A stretch of 64,000 nt of DNA from Owenia fusiformis (Eukaryota). Positions 5,584-61,933 of this stretch are shown here, piece after piece; position 1 is the stretch's first letter, and every line of letters begins with the position of its first letter. The translations under genes and the position numbers were made by a program. The DNA is taken from assembly GCA_903813345.2 (NCBI GenBank), contig CAIIXF020000001.1, forward strand, positions 28,892,001-28,956,000, read 5' to 3'. The notes beneath the pieces were generated by a model, which searched no databases, had not been told where the DNA came from, and worked only from the letters and a program-made list of their open reading frames with translations.

Positions 5584-8500
5584 TCAAAACACAATTTGCT
5601 CTTCATCCTGAACTCCTGATATATCATCCTGATATTCATCTGTCAGTTTACGCCACCAAGGCTGGTTCAATAGTTTTATTTCATTGATATGATTCTGTCT
5701 CGCTTTAGCAGCCACAGGAGCTGACCTACTGGTATACAGTTCAATGTCTTTATCACTTGCATCCACTAGGCTGGGGGCATCTGGAAGATATAATATGTAA
5801 ATACATGTGTACATGTACATATGTTAACATCCATATTCATTTGTATTGGGTCATTTTTCACAAACAAAAACTTATTTGATCATATTCACTTGGAATCATT
5901 TATTTACGAAATAAACATGTTCTCGGTTGATTTACATGATTCTGCTGAACTGTCCATAGTTGTATATATAGTTAATTTGATATACATGCGATGTATAATA
6001 ATCCAATGGCCCACGGAAATTATGACAACAGATTTCAGACAGATTTTTGCACGGACTTTCTGACCACAAAAACAAATGCATATTTAACAGTTTAAAGGAC
6101 AACTGAAATAGCTTTTCTCAGCTTGCAGCTACAAAAATGTGGTTTTCTCCATTGTAAGCCCAACGCAGAGTTCTTGCGATAGCCATTATAAAATAAATGT
6201 TAGATAACTGCTAACGCTCATAGATAACGAAATAAAAGTAACTGATCAATCAAATTGGCCCCCACGTGATTAGTAACGTCATATACAAAATATAGCTTTG
6301 GTTTATTGGTTCCTTAGTAATCACAATGTCACGGCAACCATAGGATTGTTGTGTAAACAAATAACAAAACATTTTGGCATTATGACGTCATGATCTAATG
6401 GACCAAAATGGGCCGCTGAGGGGCCAGTGAGAGATCACGTGGGGGCCAATAACGTCACAACCAATTCGAATATTGCTTATTAAGCAACTATAACGATCGT
6501 TAGAGTGAAATTATTTTCACACTACTGATGAGAAAACATGTCCAAATACATTTATCAAAAAGTTTATTGATTCCTTTAGGTTTTAAAATACCATTTCATA
6601 TCTGCTTTAATGTCAACTTTGATTACTACTCACAAAAAGCTAAAACTGTCTGAAATCTATTGCCTGATAACTTCCATGGCTTTTTCCCTGGATCCTCAGA
6701 AATTGAGCATTTTTGTGTTGCACAAATATGTACAGTATATAAGTATATGTTTTATGTATCGTATAACAAATAAATGTTCACTTACTCAGTAAAAGATCAG
6801 CATCTGTTTCAAGCCTTGCCAGCAAAGCTTCTCTCCGTTGTTCAAGTTTACGTATGGTCTTACACTGACTGATATGGCTCCGAATGGCATCCTGCACCTT
6901 GTTATGGAGTTCTTCCTGTTGGGGACGAGTCTTGGAGGGAAACTGAAAATATTTTAAATTACGGGGTACTTGCAACTTAATATTAATTTTAAAATTGTAT
7001 TTCTACTGTGTATCTGAAGATCACCTTGAGACTGTTATGTGTATTTAGCATAAACTTGAAGAAATGTTTTTTGGTAAAAAGTTATTTTTATCAAGAATCT
7101 CCACAGTCCACACCTGTATTTTTTTACATTTGTACCCTCTACATCTATTCATTTGACCTGATGTTGTCAAAAAGTGAAATACTCAATATTATGTAATTTG
7201 ATCAAGTATATAAAAGTGCTAAACATAATTTTATTTTTATTTATTTATTTGCCAACACTTTTATAACAGTGGCACATGGATTATTATCCAGTGCGGCTAC
7301 ATACAACCATACAGTATGAATAAAAATATACAGTCAATCAGTCATGTATAATTTCTTTAAAACAATGTTGCATATACTAAAAAAATAATCAAAGACATAA
7401 ATCTCTGGGCTTGTACAATTGGATTAAAAAGCGTTTTACAATGCTATCAAATGCGGCAAGACTCTTGCCCCCATTTTGAAAAAGTCTCATCAGCAAGCAT
7501 AAAGGTCAATTTCTCAGCCAGATTCCCCTAAATGAAATCAGAAAATAAATCGGAGGGACATTGCTTACAAACAGTGTGGAAAAAGGATTCACGTTCTTCT
7601 TTAAAATGTTCACACAGCAGCAACCTATGCTGTAAGTCTTCATGTACATTCAAACTACAAAGTTTACCTTTGCCATCACTTTTGCCCCATGCAGAGTAAT
7701 TGGATTGAAGGCAAAAATTGTTGGTTCTTGCAAGAAATTTGAGTCTAGAACCATAAAAATCAAAGTCTTGTTTTAGATAAAATTTCTTGGTATGGATGGT
7801 ATGGATATCTGAGAGTAATTCACAGTGAAATTACCATGGGCATTCATTAGATTGAAAGCCCATGGAAATTACCAAAGAAAAGAAGTCTATTGAGTATACT
7901 AGTGACTTGGTGAAGTACTAGCCATTTACAAATTGTCCATGATACATGTTCAAATACAATACCTTTCATATATTTAATTGATTTAATAATAGAGATCATT
8001 ACATAAATGTTACATCAATATCCCTTGAGGCAGTTGAAAAGATATTTAGCACTGAAATTTCACTAATGAATTCAAGTTGGCCTGTTAGCCAAGCCGTGAT
8101 CGTCTAGTGGTTAGGACCCCACGTTGTGGCCGTGGTAACCCAGGTTCGAATCCTGGTCACGGCATGGCCAACATTTTTTTATATTCAAATCCTGGAGGCT
8201 ATTTCATAAAAATTTAAAACTTTGAAATTGCGTTTATGATTTCAAGTTGGCCTGCTAGCCTAGCCGTGATCGTCTAGTGGTTAGGACCCCACGTTGTGGC
8301 CGTGGTAACCCAGGTTCGAATCCTGGTCACGGCATGGCCAACATTTTTTTATATTCAAATCCTGGAGGCTATTTCATAAAATTTAAAACTCTGATATTGC
8401 ATTTATGATTTCAAGTTGGCCTGCTAGCCTAGCCGTGATCGTCTAGTGGTTAGGACCCCACGTTGTGGCCGTGGTAACCCAGGTTCGAATCCTGGTCACG

Positions 8501-11500
8501 GCATGGCCAACATTTTTTTATATTCAAATCCTGGAGGCTATTTCATAAAAATTTAAAACTCTGATATTGCATTTATGATTTCAAGTTGGCCTGATAGCTT
8601 AGCCGTGATCGTCTAGTGGTTAAGACGCCACATTGTGGCTGTGGAAATCCAGGTTTGAATCCTGGTCACGGCATTTCCAATATATTTTTTTCTTTTGTAA
8701 TCCTCAAGGCTATTTCATAAGATTTAAAACACTGATATTGCATTTATGATTTCAAGTTGGCCTGATAGCTTAGCCATGATCGTCTAGTGGTTGAGACCCC
8801 ACATTGTGGCCGTGGTATCCAGGTTCGAATTCCTGTCATGGCATGGCCAACATTTTGATTTCGTTTTTCTGTATTTGAATCACTGAGCCTATTTCATGAC
8901 ATTTTTTACACATATTATTTCTGAAAAATCCATTCCAAAGTTAACAATTTATTTCGGAAATATCCTAGATTTTAATGTTCTTTGTGGAATAATGTTCCAG
9001 ATTTTGTAACAATTTTTTTGCTTGTTATTTAATGTCTCAATCTAATTTGGTCTCATAATTCCTTTTCATGCTTTTTAATACAAGAAGTTCATTTCTATCC
9101 CTGAATTAGTCTTAATAGGGAATTCATAGATTTTAAACTTTATTTTTTCATTTTTCAAATGTTCATATCCACATTCATTATCATGAAATATCTTAAAGTC
9201 AGGGTGCACTTTGATGAAATTACATGACCATGTGCTATTTTCAGATAAACATAACTCATTCCACACATCATCTACATCTTTCATTCTTGCACAAAAGATG
9301 CATTAGTGTACCTAGACTATTAATTAAGGGGTGGATAATTCTTCAGAATTTTTAAAATAATAGAATATTCAGTGGTTTACTTTTCAAGATTGCAAAAAAA
9401 ATTCAAAAGTGCACTCTGGCCTTAATCTAAGCTTGATATATTATACGAAATTATATTTGGAATGGTAAAGAATAAAATCAGATATATTTGGGAAATAATG
9501 CTCTAGCCTAGCCAAATGCATAGGGAGTAAGTCACCCCCTCCCTCTTATAGTCTATATATATATATAATATAAGTGATATTCGATGGTTTCAAAAGTGAT
9601 ATTCAATGGTTTCAACTTTAACTTTATTAATTCTGCTTGAGTCTCAGATTCCTCAAAATGATTTTTTCAAAATTTTCATTTTTTCTGATTGTTTAATGTT
9701 CGCTGGGATATAATTTCCCATGGGATAAACCTATGGTTTTGAAGATAATATCAATTAAATCCACTCATATCATACATCAATATCCACATATGGACATAAA
9801 TTATATTTTTTCAAAACCATAGGATAAAATTCAGAGTCCCTGGAATCAGACCTGGACCGTTCAATGGTAAAGTCAATTTTACCCCCAATATTATTCAATA
9901 GATTTCAATAGGAAGTAAGAGCCAGGAAACATTTAATTCATAAAATGGACATCCATGTTAATACTGACATCATGCTGAGGATGCAATTAACCAATTTGTT
10001 ACATCTACAAATAATAATTAATAATTTTGAATGTTTGGACATAATACCTGGGCTAATTGAAGAGTCAGAGATAGAGAAGAGGTGTCAAAAATAAAGCCAA
10101 AATGATAATTAACCAAATAACATGTTCTAAAACATCTAAAAAATATAATGTCTCCTAATAAGTTCCACATTTTATCAAATGGTGCAGTAATTAAAGAATT
10201 CATATGGAGATATGTGTCTACAATTCTATTTGTGTACATGGACCTCTGATGTGTACTTGCTTTGTCTTAATGTAAACCCACATTTAAAAACAACTTAAAA
10301 TAAATATTTTGAAGGGAGATGGGAGGGGGCTTCAAAAACCCAGATCATGTTAATTTCTATCAATAAAAATATGAAATATCCCTAGTTCTTGAGAATATAA
10401 ACCATTGAATATTAGGAAAGTAAAACTGAAAAGGAAATAAGATGAAAAGATTATGAAATAAGAATCTCTTATTTTACCTTTAATTTTCAAAGACAATATT
10501 ATCATTAGAGTTTGGTGTCAGGATGCCACAATGTTGAAGTATAAAAACATCTAAGATGTAAAAAGGAAATAACTTTTCTTGAATCTGGTTACTTCCTTTT
10601 GTTTCTTTTATTAACTGACAGAACTATCTAAGGTTCAATCAATGATAACAATCATAATCTAAGCTAATAACCCCAGATTGAACCTTAATTTATGACACTT
10701 TGTTTATCAGGTTAATTAGAAACAATAAAGGAAATATTGGCTAAATATCCCAATAGGAAGCTATTGTTTCAAACAAGAAACAATATTTAGTAATCAAAGA
10801 AATTAACCATATAAACACCAAAACAATCAAACACACAATACATCTTGATGCTAATTTTAATTACATGCGTTGGTAATTAAGGGGTTAATCTAGGTAATAA
10901 AAGCCCAAGAGTTGTTAAGTTGGTGACATTTTGAGAAGGTGTTTGGAGTGGAACAAAGGGTGTGGGTAATCCTGACTATAAACCCTGACCCTAACTCAGG
11001 GCCAACACTCTCAAATTTAGATGAAACATGGAACTCACAAACATGCGGATTAGGAGTATGGCATCCCCAGTTGGTAAGTTTTTGTTTTCATCATCTCCAT
11101 TGTTTGTGACATCTTCCTAATTATTATTTGTTTGTCATCAAACTGCTAATTAATGACATTATTGTTTGCAATGTAATGTGAATATAAAGATAGTCTCAGA
11201 AAGGGTACTGCATTCATTCAACAATGTATGGGACATTAACAAAGTGATTCTTTCAAGAATTTGATTTCGCATCTTTAAAAAGTTAAAACACAGTGGGACA
11301 GGATATTTTGTTCTATGTAGGACATAAGCAAAGATGCCATGGGTTCACATACAAGACTTTTTTTCAGGTAAATTAAATTGCCACAAAACTTGATGCAAAG
11401 ATTGACTGTGGTAGCTCAACTTAGATGGATAAAGACTCAACATATTTAAATCAATTAATTAATAAACTCTCACAGACTTCATTGACATGGAATTTAGATA

Positions 11501-14500
11501 CGAATCTTTAACTTCAATTGTAACTATACAAATCATATGCCAATGCTCTAATTGCACAAAGGAAGCCATTTTGAAAATTTGATGTCATACAAAAGGAAGT
11601 CATGAAGTGAGATGATTAATTAGAAGCCACTTATGTCTTCATGTATCTTACACATATAGGTATATAACATCAACACTTGGTACAATGCAATCATTGCACA
11701 ATGGTTCCAAACACAGAACATCTTTAATTTACAAGAGAACACTCAGGAAAGTTTTATGAATTTTTCTCAATTAGCTGGCTATTAAGGTACAGTAGTTATA
11801 GGACATCAGTCTTAGCCTAGGTAATCGATCATCTGCAAACTCAACACTATCATTTATGATAAGAATTGGTATTAGAGAAACAAGTATTTTGCTACAAGGC
11901 AACTATTGGCAAGTTGTTGGAAGGTTCTAATTTGCGAACATTTCAACAACGAGCCAAACTTTGAATTGTGACATGACAACACAGAACAATGAACATACCT
12001 GGATATGGTGAAGGATCTGGTGAAGGTTTTACCAAATCTTTACATTTTTCAACTATTGGCAAGTTATAGGAGACACTTTACTATAGAACAGTGGATCCTG
12101 AACTTGTCAAATGTCGAATATGGTTTATCAACAAGTATTAAAAGTAGGTCGTTAAATTATTGAGCGTTGTGTGTAACCAGTATCTTCAAACTTTGTAATG
12201 GGATCCGGAATGGAATAAGAGAATACATAATTTGGCAAGTTTCAGGAGACGCTTAAAAATTGAATAGCGGATTCTGAAGTTGTCAAATTTTGTGCTTTCT
12301 TAAATTAAACTAACAATACAAGAAAAAGATGGTACAATTAATCCATGGATTGGGTCTGTTTTTAATCAAGGATAAAAAAGAAGGGAAATATATTTGTCCA
12401 TCATAACCTTGCCATAACTGGGACTTCTCACTGGAGTTTCACAAGTATTGGCAAGTGAAGGAGGCACTGTTTTAATACCAGTGTCCTATCTTTTGTCAAA
12501 TTCTGTGAACTCAATATAATCAACTTAACTCTTACATGGCTAGGGGTGTCAAATTGTGAATTACAACTATTGGCAAGTAAAGAAGGCACTGTTTAATGTC
12601 AGTGTCCTTTCTTTTGTCAAATTCTGTGAACTCAATATAATCAACTTAACAATTACATGACGAGAAGCTTCAAATGGAGTATTACAAGTATTGGCAAGTG
12701 AAGGAGGCACTGTTTCAATTTCAGTGTCCTTTCTTTTGTCAAATTCTGTGAACTCAATATAATCAACTTAACTCTTTCATGGCTAGGTGTTTCAAATGGA
12801 GTATTACAAGTATTGGCAAGTGAAGGAGGCACTGTTTCAATTTCAGTGTCCTTTCTTTTGTCAAATTCTGTGAACTCAATATAATCAACTTAACTCTTAC
12901 ATGGCTAAGAGCTTCAAATGGAGTATTACAAGTATTGGCAAGTGAAGGAGGCACTGTTTCAATTTCAGTGTCCTTTCTTTTGTCAAATTCTGTGAACTCA
13001 ATATAATCAACTTAACTCTTACATGGCTAAGAGCTTCAAATGGAGTATTACAAGTATTGGCAAGTGAAGGAGGCACTGTTTCAATATCAGTGTCCTTTCT
13101 TTTGTCAAATTCTGTGAACTCAATATAATCAACTTAACTCTTACATGGCTAGGAGCTTCAAATGGAGTATTACAAGTATTGGCAAGTGAAGGAGGCACTA
13201 TTTCAATTTCAGTGTCCTTTCTTTTGTCAAATTTTGTGAACTCAATATAATCAACTTAACTCTTACATGGCTAGGAGCTTCAAATGGACTATTACAAGTA
13301 TTGGCAAGTGAAGGAGGCACTGTTTCGATTTCAGTGTCCTTTCTTTTGTCAAATTTTGTGAACTCAATATAATCAACTTAACTCTTACATGGCTAGGAGC
13401 TTCAAATGGAGTATTACAAGTATTGGCAAGTGAAGGAGGCACTGTTTCAATTTCAGTGTTCTTTCTTTTGTCAAATTCTGTGAACTCAATATAATCAACT
13501 TAAATCTTACATGGCTAGGAGCTTCAAATGGAGTATTACAAGTATTGGCAAGTGAAGGAGGCACTGTTTCAATTTCAGTGTTCTTTCTTTTGTCAAATTC
13601 TGTGAACTCAATATAATCAACTTAAATCTTACATGGCTAGGAGCTTCAAATGGAGTATTACAAGTATTGGCAAGTGAAGGAGGCACTGTTTCAATTTCAG
13701 TGTCCTTTCTTTTGTCAAATTTTGTGAACTCAATATAACTAACTTATTTCTTACATGGCTAGGAGTTTCAAATGGAGTTTCACAAGTATTGGCAAGTGAA
13801 GGAGGCACTGTTTCAATTTCAGTGTCCTTTCTTTTGTCAAATTTTGTGAACTTGACAACATCAACCTAACTCTTACATGGCTAGGAGTTTCAAATGGAGT
13901 ATTACAAGTATTGGCAAGTGAAGGAGGCACTGTTTCAATTTCAGTGTCCTTTCTTTTGTCAAATTCTGTGAACTCAGTATAATCAACTTAACTCTTACAT
14001 GGCTAGGAGCTTCAAATGGAGTATTACAAGTATTGGTCCTTTCTTTTGTCAAATTCTGTGAACTCAATATAATCAACTTAACTCTTACATGGCTAAGAAG
14101 TTTCTAATGGAGTTTTACAAGTATTGGCAAGTGAAGGAGGCACTGTTTCAATTTCAGTGTCCTTTCTTTTGTCAAATTCTGTGAACTCAATGCAATCAAC
14201 TTAACTCTTACATAGCAAGGTATTTCAAATGTAGTGTTACAAGTATTGGCAAGTGAAGGAGGCACTGTTTCGATTTCAGTGTCCTTTCTTTTGTCAAATT
14301 CTGTGAACTAAATATAATCAACTTAACTCTTACATGGCTAGGGGTGTCAAATTGAGTATTACAAGATTTGGCAAGTGAAGGAGGCACTGTTTTTATAACA
14401 GTATCCTTTCTTTTGTCAAATTCTGTGAACTCAATATAATCAACTTAACTCTTACATGGCTAGGGGTGTCAAATTGAGAATTACAAGTATTGGCAAGTGA

Positions 14501-17500
14501 AGGAGGCACTGTTTTAATATCAGTGTCCTTTCTTTTGTCAAATTCTGTGAACTTGACAACATCAACCTAACTCTTACATGGCTAGGAGTTTCAAATGGAG
14601 TATTACAAGTATTGGCAAGTGAAGGAGGCACTGTTTCAAATTCAGTGTTCTTTCTTTTGTCAAATTCTGTGAAATCAACATAATCAACTTAATTGTTACA
14701 TGGCTAGGAGTTTCAAATTGAGGATTACAAGTATTGGCAAGTGAAGGAGGCACTGTTTTAATATCAGTGTTCTTTCTTTTGTCAAATTCTGTGAACTCAA
14801 CATAATCAACTTAATTGTTACATGGCTAGGAGTTTCAAATTGAGGATTACAAGTATTGGCAAGTGAAGGAGGCACTGTTTTAATATCAGTGTCCTTTCTT
14901 TTGTCAAATTCTGTGAACTCAACATAATCAACTTAATTGTTACATGGCTAGGAGTTTCAAATTGAGGATTACAAGTATTGGCAAGTGATGGAGGCACTGT
15001 TTTAATATCAGTGTCCTTTCTTTTGTCAAATTCTGTGAACTCAATATAATCAACTTAATTCTTACATGGCAAGGTGTTTCAAATGGAGTATTACAAGTAT
15101 TGGCAAGTGAAGGAGGCACTGTTTTTATATCAGTGTCCTTTCTTTTGTCAAATTCTGTGAACTCAACATAATCAACTTAATTCTTACATGACAAAGAGCT
15201 TCAAATGGAGTATTACAAGTATTGGCAAGTGAAGGAGGCACTGTTTTAATATCAGTGTCCTTTCTTTTGTCAAATTCTGTGAACTCAACATAATCAACTT
15301 AACTCTTACATGGCTAGGAGTTTCAAATGGAGTATTACAAGTATTGGCAAGTGAAGGAGGCACTGTTTCAATTTCAGTGTTCTTTCTTTTGTCAAATTCT
15401 GTGAACTCAACATAATCAACTTAATTGTTACATGGCTAGGGGTGTCAAATTGAGGATTACAAGTATTGGCAAGTGAAGGAGGCACTGTTTTAATATCACC
15501 GTCCTTTCTTTTGTCAAATTCTGTGAACTTGACAACATCAACTTAACTCTTACATGGCTAGGAGTTTCAAATGGAGAATTACAAGTATTGGCAAGTGAAG
15601 GAGGCACTGTTTTAATATCAGTGTCCTTTCTTTTGTCAAATTCTGTGAACTCAATATAATCAACTTAACTCTTTCATGGCTAGGAGCTTCGAATGGAGTA
15701 TTACAAGTATTGGCAAGTGAAGGAGGCACTGTTTCAATATCAGTGTCCTTTCTTTTGTCAAATTCTGTGAACTTGACAACATCAACCTAACTCTTACATG
15801 GCTAGGAGTTTCAAATGGAGTATTACAAGTATTGGCAAGTGAAGGAGGCACTGTTTCAATTTCAGTGTTCTTTCTTTTGTCAAATTCTGTGAACTCAATA
15901 TAATCAACTTAACTCTTACATGGCTAGGCGCTTCAAATGGAGTATTACAAGTATTTGCAAGTGAAGGAGGCACTGTTTCAATTTCAGTGTTCTTTCTTTT
16001 GTCAAATTCTGTGAACTCAACATAATCAACTTAATTGTTACATGGCTAGGGGTGTCAAATGGAGTATTTCAAGTATTGGCAAGTGAAGGAGGCACTGTTT
16101 CAATTTCAGTGTCTTTTCTTTTGTTAAATTATGTGAACTCAATATATCAACTGAACTCTTACATGGCTAGGAGTTTCAAATGGAGTATAAAAAGTATTGG
16201 TGAAGGCACTATGTGTGAGTACTTATCAGCATAGGACACAATATACCACAAGTGTTTTAATTTTTTATGCTTACGATAATGCTCTTTTTGACAAAGGTGT
16301 CACTGAATCAACTTTCTATGATCCGTCTTTTTGAAATTCAATCTCAATATTTCTCCAACTGATATCATTTAGGGGCTTCAGTTTTTTCATTAAGATGCTG
16401 AACACAGCAGTTCAAGTTAAAGTGTATTCCTCCAACCTGTAAGAGAATTGGGATGAAGTTGATGAAAGACAAACATTGAAACAGCTGGACTTACTGGGTG
16501 ATTTTCTCTCCAATCTAAGATTTTTGCCTGTAACTCTACCCTCCTGTCATCAGTCAGACCTGGTGGTCTCTGCCATGGGGGAGGCTCACGTCTCTTCACT
16601 CTTAATCTCTCTAACCATTTACGAACCTTTAGTAAACCAGAATTAAAGTTATCATTGCATATAAACATTCAAATTGCATGATATGTGATGTACATATATA
16701 TTAGTATTGAAATAGTTTGGCATTTTTTCCAGCAGACTCTTGTGGTACATGCATATTATATGACTGTTTTTATTTCCTGAATTTTAACATTAATTTCTAA
16801 AGATATGCTGTTGAGAATAAATAAAATCTAAATATATATTGGTTCTGAGAAGGAGATGAATGAAAGTGAATGGTTTCAAGTACTATACTAATAATAATTA
16901 AATCTCAAAGTTTATTTATAGACATTGAACCTGGGAAGGAGCAAGGTGTCAGAACAAACATTTCAATATTTACATGAAATATTGAGTTTCTAAAAACATC
17001 ACACAAAACTTGCAAGTTCAAAACCCAAGATTTTCCCAAGAAGTTTTCAAATGGACCAATTCTATTATGCATAAAGACAAAACACCTATAGAAAGAATAT
17101 ATTGAGTATCAATACAGACATGTATGGTGTCCTTTAATATATAACTGTATCCATAGAACCTCGCGTAATACTCATATAGGCAAACATTATGTCCCAATAT
17201 TTGGCCTATGTCTATAGACACTCAAATTGATGACTCCTTGAAATTCTGCTCTCATACAGTCTTAATGTCACAACATACATATGGAATACCTACCGCCCTT
17301 TGTATAATTATCACAGATCTTAATCTCTTTGTGGCCCGTTTCCTGGCATTTGGACTACCTATGGACTTTCTTTGTCTGTACCCCCGGAATTGTGCCTGTA
17401 TTTTTATTGCAGCTCTCTGTTGTTCTTTTTCAAGGTATTGGTCCATCTGACCTATACATACCACATGTGAATAATTCAACGCAAAGGTTCATGTTAAAAA

Positions 17501-23948: not shown

Positions 23949-24240
23949 CCCAATACAGATATACACTAAGAAATATCACCGAAATATTGATTTTGACATT
24001 TTGAAATTTAATTCAGAGTTCGCGCGTAATTTATTTTGGACCGCATTTTAGTACTAAATAATACCATTATCTGTTAATACTTAAACATTACATTTAAATC
24101 ATAATTATACGCTTGTACTATAGATTCATCAAGGAAAATATTAAGCTATTATCACATTCATTTATAGAGAAAATAAAAGAAAACGATTCAATCATAAATG
24201 ACCTTCACCTTGCACTCAGTTGACCTTTCAATATTTTGAG
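23949..24240. promoter_or_regulatory. Probable bidirectional promoter between IQCB1 and RPE
   Basis: Only 292 bp separate the divergent start codons (23948 on -, 24241 on +). Confidence 0.65.
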
Positions 24241-27200
24241 ATGGCAGAATCAACATGTGAATGTAAGATTGGTCCTTCTATTTTGAACTCGGATTTGTCA
24301 ATGTTGGCATCCGAGTGTCAGAGAATGATGGATTGCGGGGCTGACTACATTCACCTTGATGTAATGGATGGTGCTTTTGTGCCAAACATCACCTTCGGTC
24401 ATCCTATCGTCAAATGTCTTCGACCAAAATTGCCATCTGCATTCTTTGATATGCACATGATGGTTGCCAAACCAGAACAGGTAAATTGGCACGTCTTTCT
24501 ATTTTTAATCGATGAATACATGCTGGAATATCTACTGATTGAGAGTGTATGCTCTAATGGGGCTCTGTCTGAGTGGGGCAGCCCTGTCAACCCTCACGCA
24601 AATCACGCATTTTGTTGATAGTTTTAAAAGGGGTCAACCCAGTTGTCCGAAACCCAGTTCTCCAAAACCCAGTTTTCCGAAACCCAGTTGTCCGAAACCC
24701 AGTTCTCCGAAACCCAGTTTTCCGAAACCCAGTTGTCCGAAACCCAGTACTCCGAGAATTAGGGGATCTTATTTGAAAAATACAATTTTTTTAAACGAAT
24801 CTCGTTGTCGCAACCTCTGCGAATCACAACATAACATTGGAATAACGTTGACACCATTGCAAAATTAGGCTAAATATGCTAAGTCAAGACGTTAATTGTT
24901 TAATGTTTAGCCTACGAAAGTTCATATACAGGTGATATAGATGTTCAAACAAACAAAGTTAAATTATGTTATTCTCATTGTAAAATGACGTTCACACAAC
25001 ATACATAGATAGGGGTCTACAATTTTTAAACCAATTTTCTTTATGGCCCATGGGCCTTTTTTGAGAGGGAACAACATTTTTCCAATGGGTGATGAGCGTT
25101 CATAAAAGGAAAAATAGCTTTCCCAAGCCAATGGGCATTTATTTAGTAAAGTTGACATGTACATCTTTTGAAACCAAAACATATTCTTCATTTACGTACT
25201 CTGTTCGAGAAATAGAGATTAAATTAAAAGGATGAAGTGAGTACATGGCGAAAATGAAACTTCTTGCGAATGGGAGAACATCCATTTTGATACGAGGACA
25301 GCGTTTCCAGTTGATCCCAAGTGATTAAGTTAAGAATGTTTTGTTCTTTTACGATTTGATAAAATACAGAGACTAAGAAATTAAATGCGACGAAATATTT
25401 TGACAACGTAATATGTATACTGTTTTATTCTTAAAGTACTATATGCGTAAACTTATTTTATCTGTTTCAAAATGATTCATTTTATTTTGCCTATATAAAA
25501 GAGATTGAAGAAGATAAGATAAACTGTTCCGTAATATATTTTTTGTGTTTTGATAACCTTTTTTTAGAATCACAATTTAAAATAAATCCCCCGTTCCTGC
25601 CATTCTGGTAACGTGTGCAATGGATGCAATTCAAAGTGAGAGAGAGAGAGAGAGAGATCTATGAACATCAGAATGCGTCCATGCCATTAATTTGGCCAAA
25701 TACATGGCATGAAACTGGCCTAAGCTTAGTACGTCTCCCCTTTCTCTGGTAAATTATGACTATATTTTTCGGAGTAATGGGTTTCGGACAACTGGGTTTC
25801 GGACAACTGGGTTTCGGACAACTGGGTTTCGGACAACTGGGGTGCACCCGTTTTAATAAGCGTTTTTCATAAAATGCAGATTCGGTAAAATACCGAACAG
25901 CGAAAAAAAGCGAACGCATTTTGTTCGGGTTTTGCACACGATTGCTGTATGCATTTGGTTCAAAATATGTGTATATATCACGCATTTGTTTCGAAAATAT
26001 TTGCACCTACTCCTACCACTTTTCAAGATGTCAGAAGGCAATAGGCAAGATGGAGGAATTTTCTCAATTTGCCAATTTACTTATAATGAATTGGAGATTC
26101 AATTGCATGCCTACCATAAAGATGCTCTTTTTCTGTTTTAGTGGGTTGAGAACATGGCTGATGCAGGTGCAAATCAATATACATTCCATATTGAAGCTAC
26201 AGATGAACCTGAAGCTTGCATCAGGAAAGTGCGTGAAGCAGGAATGAAGGTAAATGCTCCATAAAATACAAATACTCAGATCTATGTACTTGATTCATTT
26301 AAAGGTATATGCAATATGAATGCATGTGTCATTTTGATCCATTCACTCTCTTGGGAACAAAATGGTCTTATTCTATTCTGAATTTAATGTAAAGTAAAGT
26401 ATCAGTACAAAATAGTATAGTGTAGTGTAGTGTAGTGTAGTGCAGTGTAGTATAATGTAGTGTAGTATAGTATAATGTAGTGTTATGTAGTGCAGTGTAG
26501 AAAAGGTACAGTATGGTACAGTTGGTACAGCACAATAGTTACAGTTTCATTTGACTGGTGTGGTTTACACTTGAATGAAAATGACTGTTTTCAGTTTTTC
26601 AATCCAAAGCCAGTAAATGACATTATTATTCTCAATTTGAAACTAAAGAGATCAGACCAAAGATGTACATGTACAAGGAATAAATAAATTGAATGTTTTT
26701 TTCTTACACTACAGGTTGGTCTAGGTATAAAGCCTGGTACTCCAGTAGATGTACTACTCCCCTATGTTAACCATGTAGATATGGTTCTTGTCATGACAGT
26801 TGAACCAGGATTTGGTGGACAGAAATTTATGGCTGATATGATGCCAAAGGTAAGCAAATCCAACTTATTTCATATATAACTACTGTATAACTATTTATTT
26901 TATAGTCTCCAACTTTTTTGTGGATGGTGTTTGGCAGTTGGTGTTCAGTGGTTGGTGTTTGATGGTCAGCATTTAACAATTGGCAGGTGGTGACATTTTG
27001 CATGGCAACACATTGTTTGCGATGTCACAAGTTCAATAACATCCTTCTTTTTATAGAAACTTGTATTCAGTTTTGGGAATTTTGGTATTTTAAAATAATT
27101 TAGTAAATAAAAAATGTGGACTAAATTTTGGAGTAAGTTCTATTCCATAAAGGTTTACCAATATCACCCTGAGACTTCTCGTCAGAGATAAGTCATATTG

Positions 27201-29613: not shown

Positions 29614-32600
29614 TTATTTTTTGTTCTTGACTCCTCGTTCAAGATCTGCCATCAATCTGAGGCAGCGTTCATCTTGCCAAGGCAGTGTAATACATTGTAC
29701 TGCCACTGGGAGTCCTTCACTACCCTCCATATGCTGAAATTATACACGTGCCTTCCTTAGTCAGTTGTTTTATAAAACCCCAAAATTTGACTTAGATGTA
29801 GAGAAGTTCATAACAAAATATAGTAATAATAAAAGTGATATTTTTTATCAAGTTCTCAATTTTAGCAACTTATCAGCAGGAGTACAGTACCAGATGAGAA
29901 TTTAAAACTTCCTTCTTAATTTTATCTATCCAGATTAAAATCTAGTTGCGCCAAGTTTGGAAATGTAGATCAGAATAAAGAAGAATTTTGTACCCAGTCT
30001 AGAACTAACTACAGAGAAGCTTTAAAGGGAATTTCTTTGTCTCATTAGTGACCTTTGATCACTGGACCAAAACCAGAATTCTCACCTTTTTTATACGTCT
30101 ACTAGCAAACGTTGAAGCCTTCCAATGCTTTAGATTTTCCTGGTCAGATTTTGTTACCTTGGTTACGGGAAGAACACCAGCTGGGAAATTCAAGACATTC
30201 CACAAGGCAAAGTATGCCAGAATTTGACCTGGATCAAAACAGAATTTTATCAATTGAAGTATTATCAATTCTTAGATTTAATATCTGATTATTATGCATT
30301 GTCTCCTTAGTGATGTCCCATAATAACTGCTAATATATTACATACTGTAAATATATCTTGAGACCAACTTATGGGCACAGTATTGCTGATATATTGAGAA
30401 AATCAACGAAACAACCAACTGTTAGATTTTAACACAATTTCGCTAGTTTGAACTATTTGCTATGGAAGGGAATTCCTGTTGCATGGCATGAGCATCATCA
30501 CATGACTTTAACCCAGGCAGCCAATCAGATTCAGAGCTGTTTTTTGTGTTTTTTTGGAATTTCTGACCATCCAGTAAATAATTCAAAATTATCAAGGCCA
30601 GGGGTACTCTAATTGTGCTCCAATTAGACAGTGCCTGTGACAGGAAATTGTCTCAGATATCAATGCATCAGTCAGACATTCCTAAATCTTATTTGGATTA
30701 ATTTCTGGGTTTTTCAGTTTAACATCATTAGACTAATTTCAGACATTGTCATTTTTCACTCAATGACTCATTTAATTGTGTTGTTTACCAACATAATCTT
30801 CTGGGTTTCCAGTAGGCATAGCAACTGATCCATAAGCCGGAGCAATCACTGCATCGAGGCCAGCTCTCTTCCAGTGGTCAATGAAGCGACCTGTCAGTTT
30901 CTGGAATCAGTTATATAAAGTGCATTCAATATTTAGAATCATTGGTGTTATTGAAATTTTCTTGAAGTTGGCCTACGCTTGCCAAAAAGGAAATTAAATA
31001 TCATATTGAGACATAATTCTCTCTTACCTCGCACAGTGCTGTAACATCCCACCAATCTTGACACCTCCTGCAAATAAACACATAAGAATTGCAACTTGTA
31101 CATTTTCCATGCAAAACTCGTATGTACCTATATTTATCCAATACTTACTAGTGTTATAGGTAAATAACATGTGGGAATATAATTAATATCTGAGGTAAGC
31201 GGGTGATATATGTATCTCCCACTGAGGTGAGCAGGAGATATACTGTACATTACTGGCTCATCACGAATTACATTCTGTGTTTTTTGTGCACTGAACAATA
31301 TAAACGCCAAAGCTTTAAAAAACTACAAATGTTAAGAACTTTAAATTGAGATTAAATATTCATGTTTTGATTGTATAATTATCACAATTGTAATTATTTC
31401 ATGAAGGTTCCATAACATTCAATGTACATGTATACTTGATCATAATCATATCTCTCGCTAGATTCAATATATCAACCTTTGGTCTCGGTGATCATTCCTC
31501 CGGTGGATATATTGTATTTCCCTCAGATTATACCCTGTATCAAAAACCTCCCATTAGATAACCTCAATATGTTGAGTTTATGTAGTAACAATTGTTGGAT
31601 TGAATTGAATCTACTGATATTCACTTACTTCATTTTTGAAGATGATTCAATAGTTGCCGCCTCATCCTTCATCTGCAAAAGAATCACAACCAGAGTATCA
31701 TTCAAAGTTTCCTTGTTTTATTTTTTCATTTAGATTTCCAATTCTAAACTAGATTCCATCGATATTACCTGAGTTAATGCTCGTCATAACTGGCAGAATG
31801 ATAGTAAACAAACTTATTCTTTCTGTAATTGAATAATACTTGGCAAAAAGGGTGTTAATGAATGAAGGAGAATGCAAATAATATGTAGGATAGTGTTAAT
31901 GAATGGAGGAGAATGCCAAATATATAGGATAGTGTTAATGAATGAAGGAGAATGCAAATAATATGTAGGATAGTGTTAATCAATGAAGGAGAATGACAAT
32001 AATATGTAGAATAGTGTTAATGAATGAAGGGGAATGCCAATAATATGTAGGATAGTGTTAATGAATGAAGGAGAATGCCAATAATATGTAGGATATTGTT
32101 AATGAATGAAGGAGAATGCCAACAATATGTAGGATAGTGTTAATGAATGAAGGAGAATGCCAATACATGTAATATGTAGGATAGTGTTAATGAATGAAGG
32201 AGAATGCCAATAATATGTAGGATAGTGTTAATGAATGGAGGAGAATGCCAAATATATAGGATAGTGTTAATGAATGAAGGAGAATGCGAATAATATGTAG
32301 GATAGTGTTAATGAATGAAGAAGAATGCCAAATATATAGGATAGTGTTAATGAATGAAGGAGAATGCAAATAATATGTAGGATAGTGTTAATGAATGGAG
32401 GAGAATGCCAAATATATAGGATAGTGTTAATGAATGGAGGAGAATGCAAATAATATTTAGGATAGTGTTAATGAATGGAGGAGAATGCCAAATATATAGG
32501 ATAGTGTTAATGAATGTAGGGTGGGGTATATCACAAAGAAAAATAGGCTGTAGATACCATATGATATGTACATGTATGTGCACATGTCTTGTATAGACTA

Positions 32601-40912: not shown

Positions 40913-42721
40913 TCCATCTGCCTGCCTACCCATCCATCCATCCACCCATTCATCCATTCACCCATCCATCCACCCATCCATCCATCAATTCATCCATCCA
41001 TCCACCCATTCACCCATCCATCCATCCACCTATTCACCCATCCATCCACCTATCCACCCATTCAACCATCCATCCATTCACCCATCCATCCACCTTTCTA
41101 CCCATTCACCCATCCATCAATCCATCCACCAATTAACCCATCTATCCACCCATTCACCCATCCATCCATCCACCTATCCACCCATCCATCCATCCATCCA
41201 TTCACCCATCCATCCATCCATCCATCCACCCATTCACCCATCCATCCATCCATCTACCCATTCACCCATCCATCCATCCACCTATCCACCCATTCAACCA
41301 TCCATCCATTCACCCATCCATCCATCCATTCACCCATCCATCCATCCATCCACCCATTCACCCATCCATCCATCCATCCATCCATCCATCCATCTACCCA
41401 TTTAACCATCAATCCACCCGTTCACCCATCCATCCATCCATTCACCCATCCATCCATCCACCCATCCATCCATTCACCCATCCATCCATCCACCCATTCA
41501 CCCATCCATCCACCCCTCCATCCATCCATCCATCAATCTATCTATCCATCCATCTATCCACCCTTCACCCATCCATCCACCCATCCATCCATCCACCCAT
41601 TCAACCATCTATCCTTCCACCCGTTCACCCATCCATCCATCCATCCATCCATCCACCCCTCCATCCATCCATCCATCAATCCATCCACCCATTCACCCAT
41701 CCATCCATCCATCCATCTACCCATTTTACCATCAATCCACCCGTTCACCCATCCATCCATCCATTCACCCATCCATCCATCCACCCATTCACCCATCCAT
41801 CCACCCCTCCATCCATCCATCCATCCATCCACCCATTCACCCATCCATCCATCCATCCATCTACCCATTTAACCATCAATCCACCCGTTCACCCATCCAT
41901 CCACCCACCAATCCATCCATTCACCCATCCATCCATCCATTCACCCATCCATCCAGCCATTCATCCACCCATTCACCCATCCATCCAACTACCCATTCAC
42001 CCATCCAGCCATCCACCCATCCATCCATCCATCCACCAATTCACCCATCCATCCACCAATTCACCCATCCATCCATCTACCCATCTACCTATTCACCCAT
42101 CCATCCACCTATCCACCCGTTCAACCATCCATCCATTCACCCATCCACCCACCCATCCATCCATCCATTTACCCATTCAACCATCCATCCATCCACCTGT
42201 ACACCCATCCATCCATCCACCCACATACCCATCCATCCATCCACCAATTCACCCATCCATCCATCCATCTACCCATCTACCTATTCACCCATCCATCCAC
42301 CTATCCACCCGTTCAACCATCCATCCATTCACCCATCCACCCACCCATCCATCCATCCATTTACCCATTCAACCATCCATCCATCCAGCCATCCAACCAT
42401 CCATCCACCCATTTACTCATTCATCCATCCACCCATCCACCCATCTGTCCAGCCATCCATCCACCCATCCATCCATCCATCCATCCACCTGTCCACCCAT
42501 TCACCCATTCAACCATCCATTTACCCATTCGCCCATCCATCCTATCATCCACCCATCCATCCATCGATCCATCCACCCATCCATCCATCCATGCATCCAT
42601 CCATCCATGCATCCATCCATCCATCCTATCATCCACCTATCCATCCACCCATTCATCCACCCATCCATGCATCCATCCATCCATGCATCCATCCTTCCTA
42701 TCATCCATCCTATCATCCATC
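40913..42721. repeat. 1.8-kb degenerate (CCAT)n microsatellite array
   Basis: Direct inspection; contains higher-order repeated blocks. Confidence 0.97.
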
Positions 42722-43860: not shown

Positions 43861-46800
43861 CTAGCTGTCAAATAACATTCCTGCAATTTGATTAGTATAT
43901 ATATAGTATATATATTAATTTGCATTTATTCAAATTTTTCTATACAGTGATGTATGCCAATGGGAAAACACCATAAATGGTTACAAAATACAACAAGAAA
44001 AAGAACACCAGTACACCAGTCATAATAGTAAAAAAACATGTATGCCAATATTCAACTGAATTATGTGTAAATTATTCACCTGCAATGCAAGCTGTTGTAA
44101 AGCAAGCAAGATTCCCTGCAACCATGGCCCGTATAGCAACAGATGCTAAATCTCCTGTAAAGAGAAATCATAAATCAGCATTCAACACAGGTTAAAAGTT
44201 TCATTTTGTCCATTTTGTAAACAATACTATTGTATCTCTTAGGCTACGTTCACACCAATGGCGCTTTGATGGCGCTTTAAAGCGGCTTGTAAAGCGGCAC
44301 CAAAGAGTAACAAAGCTTGATTAAAGCGTCGGGGTCGTAATAGGTAGTAGAAAAGCTCGGAGTAAAGCGGGATATTCGGCAAGAGCGCAAAAATAAAAAC
44401 TGTTCAAGCTACGTTCGCACCAACGGCGCTTTGATGGCGCTTTAAAGCGGCTTGTAAAGCGGCACCAAAGCGTAACAAAGCTTGATTAAAGCGTCTGGGT
44501 CGTAAAGGGTCGTAGAAAGGCTCGGAGTAAAGCGGGATAATCGGCAAGAGCGCCAAAAAATTTTAAACAGTTTAAAAATTTTGGGCGCTCAGTTACGAAT
44601 TGATAGAAGCGCCGAGAGCGTATCAAAGCTTAACAAACCGTAACAAAGCTCAGCAAAACCTTGACCCAAAGCGTATGAAAGCTTTACAGAGCTTGGTTCA
44701 AAGCAGGGACCCCAGTCTCTTCACTGTCTGTTACCACTTGACACGCTTCGTTAAGATGTCTCAAGATTTGCTACGATCTGGCATGAAGATCTGACACGAG
44801 GTCAGACGCTTTAATCAATATCTGACACTCTTTGTTACACTTTCATGAAGGACTCTCAAGCTTTCCAACAAATTGAGACGCTTTAATCAAGGATTGAAAC
44901 GCTTTGCTAGGCTTTGTTACGCTTGACAAGTTTCCACACGCTATATCACGCCGTGCGACAAACATCATGTCCATCTGCAATTTCTGGATCTTGTTGTTCT
45001 GCCATCGTGTTCTCAAGTCAAAGATGCAATGGTTTTATGGATCTACTGCATCTTTATATAGTCATTGGATCAAAAGCGGCATGAAATCGGCGATCTCGAC
45101 ATTTTCCAATGCGTGACAGAGCTTAACAGAACGTAACAATGCACAACAGAGCTTGGCAATCGTATCAGAGCCTGATTTAAAGCGTCATTGTCGCATCAAA
45201 GCGTAATAATGCTTATCAAAGCTTATCAAAGCGTAAAAAAAGCCTGAGGAACCTATCAAAGCTATGTTAAGCTTTCCTACGCTTTGGATCAAGCTTTTCT
45301 GAGCTTTGTTACGGTTTGTTAAGCTTTGATACGCTCTCGGCGCTTTAGTCAATTCGTAACAGAGCACCCAAAATTTTTAAACAGTTTAAATTTTTTTGGC
45401 GCTCTTGCCGAATATCCCGCTTTACTTCGAGCTTTTCTACGACCTATTACGACCCCGACGCTTTAATCAAGCTTTGTTATGCATTGGTGTCGCTTTACAA
45501 GCCGCTTTAAAGCGCCATCAAAGCGCCGTTGGTATGAACAAAAATAACAAAAATGACGGCGCTTTGCTCGCCGATTTAAAGCGTGGCATTCGCCGTTGGT
45601 GTGAACATAGCTTTAGAGAAACCTCTACACCCCCAATCTGCACTCTGAAATCATGTTACTGTATAGTGCATTAAGAGTATGGTACCATATGGTACTATTA
45701 GAGTATGGTGCAGTATAGTGTACATGGAATACCATACAGTACTGTTGGATATTGGCTGTGTATTTTTCTATAAATTCAACCAATTTAAGTGAATTCAATA
45801 TTGATTTCACTTACGTTTCCTAGATGGCGCTAGTGCAGTTACACTCCCTAGAACAATACCAACATCACTGAAATTTGCAAATCCGCAACAAGCATAAGTT
45901 GCTATCACCTCTGATCGAATCTACAATAAATATTACTTTACTAATTAGGCATAATAATGACACATTATGGCTAAAATGAATAAATTTTAAGTGAACTGGT
46001 ACACTTTTAAGGAATTCAGATTGAAAATATTTTAATAAATAACTACAATCCCAGTGTAAGACCATTATTATCAAAATATGCATGTTTTATATACAGTGAA
46101 ACCTATAAAGTGGAACACCTCTAGAGGTAGAACACCTCTGTAATTAGTGTAACGCTTTCCAGAGTCTCAAGACCTCCTGGCTATATGTTAAATGAACCTC
46201 CTTCAGTGCAACAGCTCTCAAGTGGAACACATTTTAGAAGTACCAAAGGTGTTCCTCTTTGACAGGTTTTACTGTAATTTGTTCGTCTATACTCACAGAC
46301 ATTGCAGGAAGGATTCCAGCTTTCCTGTTGTTAATGAGCTCTCCAAGCTTTTCATAAGCTACAATATCACTTAGAAATATTTTTGAACCAATCAGTTCTC
46401 CAACTTTCAAGCAGTCTTTGAGGTCCACACCCATCAAAAGTGCTAAGGGCCAGAATAAGTAAGAACAGATCAGCTGGAGAATAGAATATACTAGTGTGAA
46501 CATATTTAGAAATGCCTATAAAATTTTGTCTATTACTTTTGAATCGCCCCTCGTATATCAGAGGACGGGTATATAAATTTATTTAAAGGGTCTTGTATTG
46601 GATACATATGGGTCATGATTAATGAAATGATGGTATGACTTTTTATAAAAGATAAAATCAGCTTATTCAGGGCATAGAGGAAAATACTATCCCAAGACAT
46701 TCATTTAATAAGTATGTTCTTTTGTTGAAATTAATTTTTCCGAAAGAATTGATATTTCTTAAGAGAAATCTGGATTCTCCGAATGTTCACATTTTCTCAT

Positions 46801-49800
46801 TATGACTGAAGTGAAGATGAAGCAAAAGCAAAGCAAAAACATGCTACTTACCTGGAAGCTAAGATCAGGGTAGCTCACACGTTCTCCCAGCCAGCTGAGG
46901 GTTGCATTAATGAAGGTTAACATTGCCACGAATGCTATCAAGTTGACTACAATACTTGCCACCACTGGAACAGAATCACTTGCACCAGATGCAAAGGCAT
47001 CAATTGAATTCCTAGCTGGACTATAGCAAACAAAGACAGTATTTAGCCCACATATATGTATACATATATACTGAAGGTCACTTCGTGTAAATATTGGACC
47101 AAGTTACGATTTGTGAAAAGTATCTATACATGTAATGTGTATATTAGCAACAATTTATCTTACACTGGCTTATTATATCAAATGAACAAAAATGATGAGA
47201 AAATAGAGGTTAAGGTCCAGCATGCCATTGACCAAATATGACATTGAGTTGGTGTAAATACTGTACGTAAGGTAACTTAGTTTACAGAGCCTGATGATTG
47301 TAAAATCCCCAAAATTTAATAGCCACAAAATTGTGATTTATGGCGTTTGTTTTTACTGGAATAATCAAATCCTTTATTATATTCACCCATGATTTTACTT
47401 CTGCTTTGATAACATAATCTGCTAATGTGCATGGCTGAAATCATGATGACTTACGATTTTTCAAACTTGATATCCTTGACCTCAGCAATAGATGGCTTTT
47501 CTGTCTCTGGGTAGAGGAGACGTGCTATGGCTAGGGCTGCAGGCGCTGACATCAGGCTGGCTGCAACAAGATGACTAGACTCAACCTGTACATAAGAGGT
47601 AAACCATGTTATGACTGAACTCTCGAAAACCTGTACATAAGAGGTAAGCCATGTTATGACTGAACTCTCGAACAGTATTTAGAGTGAGCGCTATCCCAAA
47701 CAATGCGAAGACTGAATTATGTTTAAATAATGCTGAAATTGAGAGTCTGATTGTAACCTGTCCCTTCCCTGAATAATGTTTCGATTAATAAATAAACAAT
47801 TACTGTTGATTAAATCAATTAATTATAAGTAATTTATTCATTTGTTTATCATAAATAATCTGCTGAGTGATTCCTATCATGATTAATATATAGACTAAGC
47901 CTTATCTTGAATGATGTATAAATTGAATCCTATCCCGAATGATGTATCAACTGAAACCTATCTCGAATTATGTATAAACTGAATCCTATCCTGAATGGTG
48001 TATAAACTGAACTCTATCCCGAATGATGTATAAACTGAATCCTAACCCAAATGATGTATAAACTGAACCCTATCCTGAATGGTGTATAAACTGAACCCTA
48101 TCCCGAATGATGTTTAAACTGAACCCTATCCCAAATGATGCATAAACTGAACCCTATCCCGAATGATGTATAAACTGAACCCTATCTCGAATGATGTATA
48201 AACTGAACCCTATCCCAAATGATGCATAAACTGAACCCTATCCTGAATGATGTATTAACTGAATCCTATCCTGAATGGTGTATAAACTGAACCCTATCCT
48301 GAATTATGTATAAACTGAACTCTATCCCGAATGATGTATAAACTGAATCCTATCCAGAATGATGCATAAACTGAACCCTATCCTGAATGATGCATGAACT
48401 GAACCCTATCCTGAATGGTGTATAAACTGAACCCTATCCTTGATGATGCATAAACTGAACCCTATCCCGAATGATGTATAAACTGAACTCTATCCCGAAT
48501 GATGTATAAACTGAACCCTATCCCGAATTATGTCTAAACTGAACTCTATCCCGAATGATGTATAAACTGAATCCTATCCAGAATGATGCATAAACTGAAC
48601 CCTATCCTGAATGATGCATGAACTGAACCCTATGCCGAATGATGTATAAACTGAACCCTATCCCGAATGATGTATAAACTGAACCCTATCCCAACTGATG
48701 CATAAACTGAACTCTATCCCAAATGATTTATAAACTGAACCCTATCCCGAATGATGTTTAAACTGAACCCTATCCCAAATGATGCATAAACTGAACCCTA
48801 TCCCAAATGATGTATAAACTGAATCCTATCCCGAATGGTGTATAAACTGAACCCTATCCCAAATGATGTATAAACTGAACCCTATCCCAAATGATGTATA
48901 AACTGAATCCTATCCCGAATGGTGTATAAACTGAACCCTATCCCAAACAATGTATAAATTGAACCCTACCCCAAATGATGTATAGACAGCAAGAAGGCCA
49001 AAATCCACTGTTGAGAAGCCACTGGTCATAGCAGAGTGGAGCTCAGATATTGTCATCTTGGCAAGAAAACCAGAAACTGTGAGTAATGATGTTGTCTACA
49101 AGCAACAAAAAAACATTTAGAATCTTGACTAATTGCATTTTTTATATTACTTTAACTGTATACCAAAAGTACTGTATATACCTGAATTAGTGAAGTAATA
49201 TGACTTCATCCATTTTAGGGATACTAATACTATTAGTTCAACTCACTGGCCCAGTAAAGACATTTGCAGCTGCTATGAAGGACTCAGTTGGTATGGTACC
49301 CATGATGACCTGCATCATCCAGCCAAACTTGCGGATCCCCACCTGTATGACCCCCCAGTGGTACAATAATGCATTGATGGCAGCAAAGAATGTGATAACT
49401 GGCATGACCTGTAAGGTAAAGTAAGCAAATTATAATAATTTAGGTAGGGTTATTCCTGGATTTTCATGCATTGATATGCTTATTGAATTTTCTCTTGATG
49501 GCCCTGGGCTATAAACTGAAAGGCCTTACCTGTACATTTTTCTTTTTATAAAGGCTCAATGGCCTATTTTTGAAAAACCATGATAAATGCTCTCCCAGCA
49601 TTTATTTGAAAATATTCATGCTATGGATTGAAATATTTAGCACACATTTTATTCTACAAAAAGTATTTTATAGCCAGCTCCAGGTGCTATTTTCCTCAAA
49701 ATAAAACTCCACATGAGTTGCTTTTAAAATATTTTTAATAAAAAGTCAATAACAAATGAGTGGAACATAAAGAGAATTTTTTTTCTTTATTCTGGTGCAA

Positions 49801-61730: not shown

Positions 61731-61933
61731 TGTACCTCTACTTAATTTGGCAGCCGTTTAAATTTGGTGCCAAATTGTTAAAGTCTGCCAAATTAAGTAG
61801 CCACCAAATTCCTAGTAATTTTAGTACCATGTAATGAAGTACCATTAGCATATTGTAATATTGCAAGCCCGCCAGATTAATTAGTCGGCAAATGTTCAAA
61901 TCCACCAAAGTGCCAAATAAGTAGAAGTACAGT
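61731..61933. mobile_element. Tc1/mariner MITE
   Basis: TA-CTGTACCTCTACTTAATTTGGCA ... TGCCAAATAAGTAGAAGTACAG-TA. Confidence 0.7.

Follow-up and report, generated by a model that had tools for sequence, protein, structure and literature searches.

In the genome of the annelid Owenia fusiformis, three short hairpins lie directly upstream of a long tandem array, and the locus raises the question of whether these elements are genes for small regulatory RNAs or repeats that happen to fold. The initial annotation had described the three hairpins, at 11906-11957, 12056-12110 and 12232-12286, as diverged members of a miRNA family. Here, the hairpins, the adjoining array and the rest of the window, that is, the whole 64-kb stretch of DNA that was analyzed, were examined by folding, covariance model searches and comparisons between paralogues. 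The window has a GC content of ~34%, as in AT-rich animal DNA. It includes an ORF at 52844-53344 on the minus strand that matches an NCBI protein of Owenia fusiformis with 100% identity over 93% of its length, so that the DNA most likely belongs to this species or a very close relative; an RPE exon proved too conserved for placing the organism, and a protein atlas gave no usable match. A tRNA-His array is located upstream of the hairpin locus and a ribulose-phosphate 3-epimerase gene downstream of it.

Organization of the hairpin cluster

The coordinates and arms given earlier for the three hairpins were confirmed, and the elements of the cluster are as follows.

11890..11973, plus strand: extended stem of hairpin 1, a candidate pri-miRNA hairpin (dG -31.3, z -5.09, 0 of 200 shuffles as stable)
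11906-11927, 11928-11935 and 11936-11957, plus strand: 5' arm, loop and 3' arm of hairpin 1
12043..12122, plus strand: extended stem of hairpin 2 (dG -26.7, z -4.37)
12056-12077, 12078-12089 and 12090-12110, plus strand: 5' arm, loop and 3' arm of hairpin 2
12130..12203, plus strand: possible remnant of a unit resembling hairpin 1, located between the second and third hairpins, with short matches to the hairpin 1 flanks and without the hairpin
12216..12302, plus strand: extended stem of hairpin 3 (dG -35.4, z -7.42)
12232-12253, 12254-12265 and 12266-12286, plus strand: 5' arm, loop and 3' arm of hairpin 3
12432..16200, plus strand: tandem array of 122-bp units with 30 hairpin copies, directly downstream of the three hairpins
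14023..14063, plus strand: dead array unit in which an internal deletion has removed most of the hairpin (only 28.4 bits with the covariance model R1 described below)

Hairpin 1 coincides with an inverted repeat with 34-nt arms (I1), and hairpins 2 and 3 form a direct repeat (D1) with 81% identity over 57 nt. The array units are ~94% identical, and the array has a degenerate end. The consensus 5' arm of the array hairpin is TTGGCAAGTGAAGGAGGCACTG, its loop has 9 nt, and the unit folded with its flanks has a dG of -30.8 (z -5.14). At the deleted unit, the spacing is 213 instead of 122. By their sequences, the array and the three hairpins are one family.

As the initial annotation had noted, the three hairpins share the first 9 nt of the array 5' arm: the motif TTGGCAAGT begins all three hairpins and the array units, except for one array copy in which it is replaced by TTTGCAAGT. 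There are 32 exact matches to TTGGCAAGT in the window against 0.75 expected, a number reached in 0 of 100 shuffles, and all of them are on the plus strand and within 11906-16084. A covariance model, R1, was made from the hairpin family and used to scan the whole window with filters off. It identified 33 hairpins on the plus strand at 60.7-91.2 bits and, apart from the deleted unit, no other match below an E value of 0.1; the best match outside the cluster, at 61737-61801, reached 16.9 bits (E 0.15). Folding of the stretches between the hairpins yielded no further good hairpins.

One of these stretches resembles hairpin 1 in another way. At 12130..12203, the direct repeats D7 (10/10) and D3 (14/17, 82%) match the 5' and 3' flanks of hairpin 1, and the segment has lost the fold (dG -7.1, z +2.42). 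These matches hint that it is possibly a dead copy illustrating how a unit decays locally.

The confinement of the motif to one cluster bears on the possibility that the hairpins are transposon-derived foldback elements, either MITE-like or built on subterminal repeats, whose contribution would be limited to siRNA or piRNA pathways at most. Satellites derived from transposons often contain hairpin repeats and tandem arrays, and an unrelated high-copy repeat is located nearby, at ~9119-9700. Against such an origin, both the motif and R1 match a single cluster in the 64 kb, always in the same orientation. The hairpins are not flanked by direct repeats in the window, and no inverted repeats exist other than the hairpins, among which hairpin 1 is the only long one. 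The dispersed copies, terminal inverted repeats (TIRs) and target-site duplications (TSDs) that define MITEs were thus not found within the 64-kb window. The initial annotation had named a dispersed transposon repeat with TIRs and TSDs as the alternative that would undo the miRNA reading, and at the scale of this window the motif proved to be restricted to one cluster. We therefore regard a transposon-derived origin as highly improbable.

Folding, strand asymmetry and stem architecture

The hairpins fold much better than expected from their composition. On the plus strand, the cores of hairpins 1, 2 and 3 have dG values of -24.7, -25.2 and -28.5 kcal/mol, with z values of -4.75, -5.47 and -7.03, and shuffled sequences were as stable in 1, 0 and 0 of 200 cases, respectively. 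Each of them folds as a single hairpin, and when 9800-12440 was scanned for hairpins with a sliding frame of 80 nt, they ranked as the top three on the plus strand. Across the four hairpin types (hairpins 1-3 and the array unit), the extended stems range from -26.7 to -35.4 kcal/mol with z values from -4.4 to -7.4.

Folding is strand-dependent in every type. On the minus strand, hairpins 1-3 reach only -21.9, -21.3 and -14.3, and the array unit drops from -23.0 on the plus strand to -11.7, because 1-4 pairs per hairpin are G:U pairs. R1 scores behave in the same way, with 64.9 bits on the plus versus 21.0 on the minus strand for hairpin 1, 65.0 versus 23.5 for hairpin 2 and 60.7 versus 25.1 for hairpin 3; the array units score 75.6-91.2 bits on the plus strand, and minus-strand scores over the family are 12.7-43.7 bits. 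The asymmetry of both folding and R1 scores indicates that the conserved feature operates at the level of a plus-strand RNA and is not a palindrome of the DNA.

Stems of Microprocessor substrates, the pri-miRNAs, are ~35 bp long. When the hairpins were folded with 20-nt flanks, all four types gained 13-16 nt of lower stem beneath TTGG, and the distance from TTGG to the loop was exactly 22 nt, giving a whole stem of ~35 nt (36 nt for the 5' strand of the array unit stem). The position about one helical turn above the stem base, where the cut would fall, is TTGG ±1 nt. Each hairpin contains 18-19 pairs, with loops of 8, 12 and 12 nt in hairpins 1-3 and 9 nt in the array unit.

Canonical animal miRNA genes, as defined by MirGeneDB and the Bartel laboratory, have at least 16 pairs between arms of ~22 nt, a loop of at least 8 nt and a stem of ~35 bp with a lower stem of about one helical turn below the cut. 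Their conservation decreases from the guide arm to the star arm and then to the loop and flanks, and they give rise to ~22-nt reads from both arms with a homogeneous 5' end and 2-nt 3' overhangs. The canonical pair number, loop size and stem length were present in all four hairpin types, and the canonical order of conservation was observed, in this case among paralogues only.

Conservation between paralogues and maintenance of pairing

To describe what the family has retained, the four hairpin types were compared in all six pairwise combinations. The 5' arms resemble each other in every combination, with 15-19 of 22-23 positions identical (z 3.7-7.3, 0-1 of 500 shuffles). For the 3' arms, clear similarity is limited to the combinations hairpin 2/hairpin 3 (18/21) and hairpin 2/array (15/24), and neither the loops nor the 60-nt flanks on either side rise above shuffle level in any combination. 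The block AGGAG.C.CU is common to hairpin 2, hairpin 3 and the array once the array arm is aligned with a gap of 1 nt. The conserved element is the entire 5' arm, with the first 9 nt conserved most strongly. The earlier statement that the remainder of each 5' arm differs was overstated, and to confine what is retained to the first 9 nt is too narrow a view. That the 5' arm alone is consistently conserved between paralogues looks like the result of selection on one miRNA family.

The same gradient is found within the array. The 5' arm has a nucleotide diversity of 0.015, about one-seventh of that in the spacer; the corresponding values are 0.035 for the 3' arm, 0.165 for the loop and 0.10-0.11 for the spacer and flanks. 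Variable columns make up 5 of 22 in the 5' arm versus 40 of 70 in the flank and spacer (Fisher p 0.0067), and variants common to at least two copies occur in 0 of 22 versus 20 of 70 columns (p 0.0026); as the array copies are related by descent, these p-values overstate independence and are generous. The chief variant of the 3' arm, C>T, turns a G:C into a G:U pair and thereby keeps the pairing. Invariance or near-invariance in the 30 copies was also seen for TGTGAAC, the 3' strand of the array lower stem, and the spacer just after it varies.

Each 5' arm is accompanied by its own complementary 3' arm, as had been proposed, and pairing is kept through both one-sided and two-sided changes. Hairpin 2 is separated from hairpin 3 by a single two-sided change (A:U to G:C, arm position 20) and three one-sided changes that keep the pairing; the double change from CACT/AGTG to CGCT/AGCG pointed out previously is a true two-sided change between these two hairpins. 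Between hairpin 2 and the array there is one two-sided change, U:A to G:C, and between hairpin 1 and the other types there are 3-6. One-sided changes that keep the pair amount to 2-4 per paralogue pair. In a covariation test on a sequence-only MAFFT alignment of 8 sequences, RNAalifold found 22 pairs, 9 of which have a two-sided change. On this structure, 88.1% of cells were paired versus 79.4% in shuffles (0 of 500 reached 88.1%) and 40-50% with slid partners; the test has few rows, 5 of the 8 being copies of a single array, and its structure was itself obtained from that alignment.

These observations also bear on the possibility of a hairpin-bearing satellite that yields no small RNA, in which the dyad would act at the DNA level or be incidental and the three hairpins would represent ancient monomers in decay. 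A 122-bp tandem array in high copy number with ~94% identity would fit a satellite, as would the zero RNA-seq depth in three runs (see below) and the lack of an Rfam family at threshold. However, neutral decay should strike arms and flanks alike, whereas here the 5' arms keep their 15-19 of 22-23 positions while flanks and loops have fallen to shuffle level. Furthermore, two-sided changes maintain the pairing, the G:U pairs make the structure strand-specific, unlike a DNA palindrome, and the one decayed-looking unit, at 12130..12203, has lost its fold entirely. A satellite of this kind is therefore quite unlikely, and stem architecture, order of conservation, pairing and strand asymmetry favor the interpretation originally given, namely that the pattern is that of a miRNA family and not of neutral satellite decay.

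Evidence of constraint at the RNA level would equally suit protein-binding stem-loop modules of a long non-coding RNA, which would act intact and not diced, in the manner of a regulatory lncRNA repeat array. The presence of many identical modules in one putative transcription unit would fit such an RNA, and dicing is a predicted step in the miRNA reading. A protein-binding helix would be constrained symmetrically, whereas the constraint observed here lies on one arm and most of all on its first 9 nt, as suits a guide with its seed; in addition, a Microprocessor-like stem (~35 nt, composed of 13-16 nt plus exactly 22 nt) recurs in four diverged types. We consider intact lncRNA modules very unlikely. 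A spliced-leader RNA gene array was also considered, as GCAAGT resembles a GC-type splice donor, and was ruled out, because the sequence upstream of the motif is variable and the downstream arm is conserved.

Conservation of the family is known among paralogues: a search of metagenome contigs with a degenerate pattern revealed no orthologue in other species. The scan returned 40 loci, all of which, after folding, look like chance matches, including GC-rich bacterial hairpins resembling terminators. Two metagenome loci (L024 and L026) have 14 nt in common with the 5' arm of hairpin 1 and fold poorly (-12.6 kcal/mol).

With respect to expression, three raw RNA-seq runs carrying the same species label showed zero depth over 11856-12331 (6-12% of each read, tissue and stage unrecorded); this comparison covered 9000-12560 and does not bear on small RNAs. 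In a separate contig set of 254 million letters with unrecorded library type, parts of 10325-11974 were covered, with a depth of 75-106 at 10527-11354 and 37 at 11856-11974, and the depth was 0 at 12094-12331 and 1579 at the first array unit. Given the unrecorded library type, this set says nothing firm about transcription.

A putative miRNA cluster and its relation to known families

Taken together, the locus is with a probability of about three in four a plus-strand cluster of ~33 miRNA genes with the same seed, probably polycistronic and with the 5p product as guide. We regard it as a probable and fairly ordinary new gene cluster in an annelid. The three upstream hairpins would be diverged paralogues of the hairpin that was amplified 30-fold in the adjoining array, and one or a few polycistronic primary transcripts would carry the cluster. 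Candidate signals for such a transcript are a TATA-like box at 10977-10982, a donor-like GTAAGT at 11074-11079 and AATAAA at 16816-16825. Microprocessor would measure the ~35-nt stem and cut near the first T of TTGGCAAGT, ±1 nt, after which Dicer cleavage at the loop would free a duplex of ~22 nt whose 5' arm would be loaded into Argonaute as the guide. The guide 5' end is predicted at or within 1 nt of TTGGCAAG, so that the mature sequence would begin with (U)UGGCAAGU, and depending on the cut site the seed would be UUGGCAA, UGGCAAG or GGCAAGU. Since all members share the first 9 nt, they would have one seed and would be expected to repress the same mRNAs; the array would provide dosage, and the three older paralogues would vary in the 3' half of the guide.

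Owenia fusiformis miRNAs are curated in MirGeneDB 3.0 (PMC11701709), and the cluster may therefore already be annotated there; the main text of the article describing that release does not name it. Literature searches, within the library covered, retrieved no paper with the arm sequences and nothing relevant linking Owenia fusiformis with miR-31 or describing tandem miR-31 clusters in annelids. If the cluster is listed in MirGeneDB 3.0, our finding is a correct rediscovery. If small-RNA reads confirm it, it would be among the larger tandem miRNA arrays in an invertebrate and, if the miRNA reading is true, a clean natural case of miRNA family growth by tandem amplification with the seed kept. 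The three diverged paralogues make it possible to separate selection from concerted evolution and show that the 5' arm and the fold have been retained. The Owenia lineage is used for inferring ancestral bilaterian development.

A comparison with Rfam at gathering thresholds gave no match in the window besides four tRNAs. Below threshold, with lax filters, the best plus-strand matches are all to miRNA precursor families: mir-31 for hairpin 1 (25.0 bits, gathering 51), mir-182 for hairpin 2 (18.2 bits, gathering 71), mir-676 for hairpin 3 (25.2 bits, gathering 61) and mir-263 for the array unit (23.6 bits, gathering 51.3), which also matched mir-31_2 at 16.2 bits (gathering 97). As mir-676 does not share the seed, its match is surely spurious, and together with a wrong-strand match to mir-1006 at 23.3 bits it indicates that ~25 bits is noise for a good hairpin. 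A family assignment was rejected because the sub-threshold matches disagree between the paralogues (mir-31, mir-182, mir-676 and mir-263). The caution of the initial annotation, which had claimed no homology to miR-182 or miR-31, was thus well placed, the scores being far below threshold.

The resemblances to two ancient families can nevertheless be described. In the case of Mir-31 (RF00661, RF03550), 15 of the first 17 aligned positions in the 5' arm of hairpin 1 agree with the consensus, GGCAAG and UGUUGG among them, and a guide beginning at the second U would share seed positions 2-7. Over positions 2-8, the seed agrees at best in 6 of 7 positions, and only in that register, which is an assumption; the two are not the same at position 8 of the seed, and their 3' thirds bear no relation to each other. 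The scores with the Mir-31 covariance models are below gathering, and hairpins 2 and 3 give no match at E values up to 10.

With the Mir-96 group (clan CL00093, comprising mir-182, mir-263, mir-183 and mir-96), the family shares UUGGCAA, which starts the 5' arm as in the mir-182 consensus. The array 5' arm agrees with the mir-263 consensus at 15 of 23 ungapped positions in a hand count on the alignment, and the best Rfam matches of hairpin 2 and the array unit both belong to this clan. UUGGCAA would coincide with the mir-182 consensus seed only for a guide that begins 1 nt before TTGG, at a base that reads A, A, T and A across the four hairpin types. Outside the seed, 9 of 15 positions agree, which is not significant given the number of comparisons. 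Covariance model scores for Mir-96 are likewise below gathering, and hairpins 1 and 3 have no match in the clan. Allowing for the numbers of paralogues, families and registers compared, the resemblances to Mir-31 and Mir-96 outside the seed are not significant by our sequence comparisons, and a lineage-specific family fits equally well as a much-diverged offshoot of Mir-31 or Mir-96.

In its organization, the cluster recalls zebrafish miR-430 and Xenopus miR-427, which are large tandem arrays of miRNAs with the same seed. It differs from them in that sequence and seed are unrelated, in belonging to an annelid and not a vertebrate, and in being known from sequence alone. Like them, it consists of tens of near-identical head-to-tail hairpins on one strand with one 5' end and seed, accompanied by a few more diverged family members. 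By analogy, the locus could be a spiralian counterpart of the miR-430/miR-427 arrays, that is, a high-dosage battery serving a developmental transition, with an independent origin in an early-branching annelid; this proposal is conceivable though unlikely. Such a battery would be fired, for example, at zygotic genome activation or at the onset of larval life and clear a shared set of mRNAs, and it may have grown by runaway amplification from a diverged Mir-96-like or Mir-31-like member of an ancient family.

Candidate limits of the primary transcript

Three sequence features flank the hairpin cluster, which consists of hairpins 1-3 and a tandem array of hairpin copies.

10977-10982, TATA-like box
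11074-11079, donor-like TTG/GTAAGT, about 95 nt downstream of the TATA-like box
16816-16825, two overlapping AATAAA motifs, about 600 nt past the hairpin array

The box, the donor-like site and the AATAAA pair could be candidate limits of the cluster's primary transcript or of a host gene; no supporting read was found for any of the three.

Neighbouring genes and repeats

The hairpin cluster is free of overlapping protein-coding signals. The genes and the high-copy repeat identified around it are as follows.

8093-8843, + strand, five tRNA-His(GTG) genes in a tandem array with a 170-bp period
about 9119-9700, high-copy repeat
24202-24618, + strand, ribulose-phosphate 3-epimerase exon (Pfam PF00834, E 4.5e-20)
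46759-47103 and 52844-53344, - strand, concentrative nucleoside transporter exons (PF07662)

The tRNA-His(GTG) array lies about 3 kb upstream of the cluster and on the same strand. The high-copy repeat is probably a transcribed transposon fragment: in the contig set X1 its depth is in the thousands, each of the three RNA-seq runs covers it at 20-40 with reads on both strands, and the majority of its reads continue into dissimilar sequence. Elsewhere lie a strongly C-skewed CCAT-type microsatellite, about 1.8 kb long (40930-42721), and two minisatellites with units of 41 bp and 28 bp (31852-32520 and 47909-48984, respectively).

Look-alikes of hairpin 1 in metagenome contigs

At the pattern match in two AT-rich metagenome contigs (L024 and L026), which were retrieved by a degenerate pattern scan for hairpin relatives, the sequence TTGGCAAGTTGTTG is present, its 14 nt being identical to the start of the candidate miRNA hairpin 1. 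Because the local fold there is weak (-12.6 kcal/mol) and the match occurs as a single copy, this likeness is probably due to chance.
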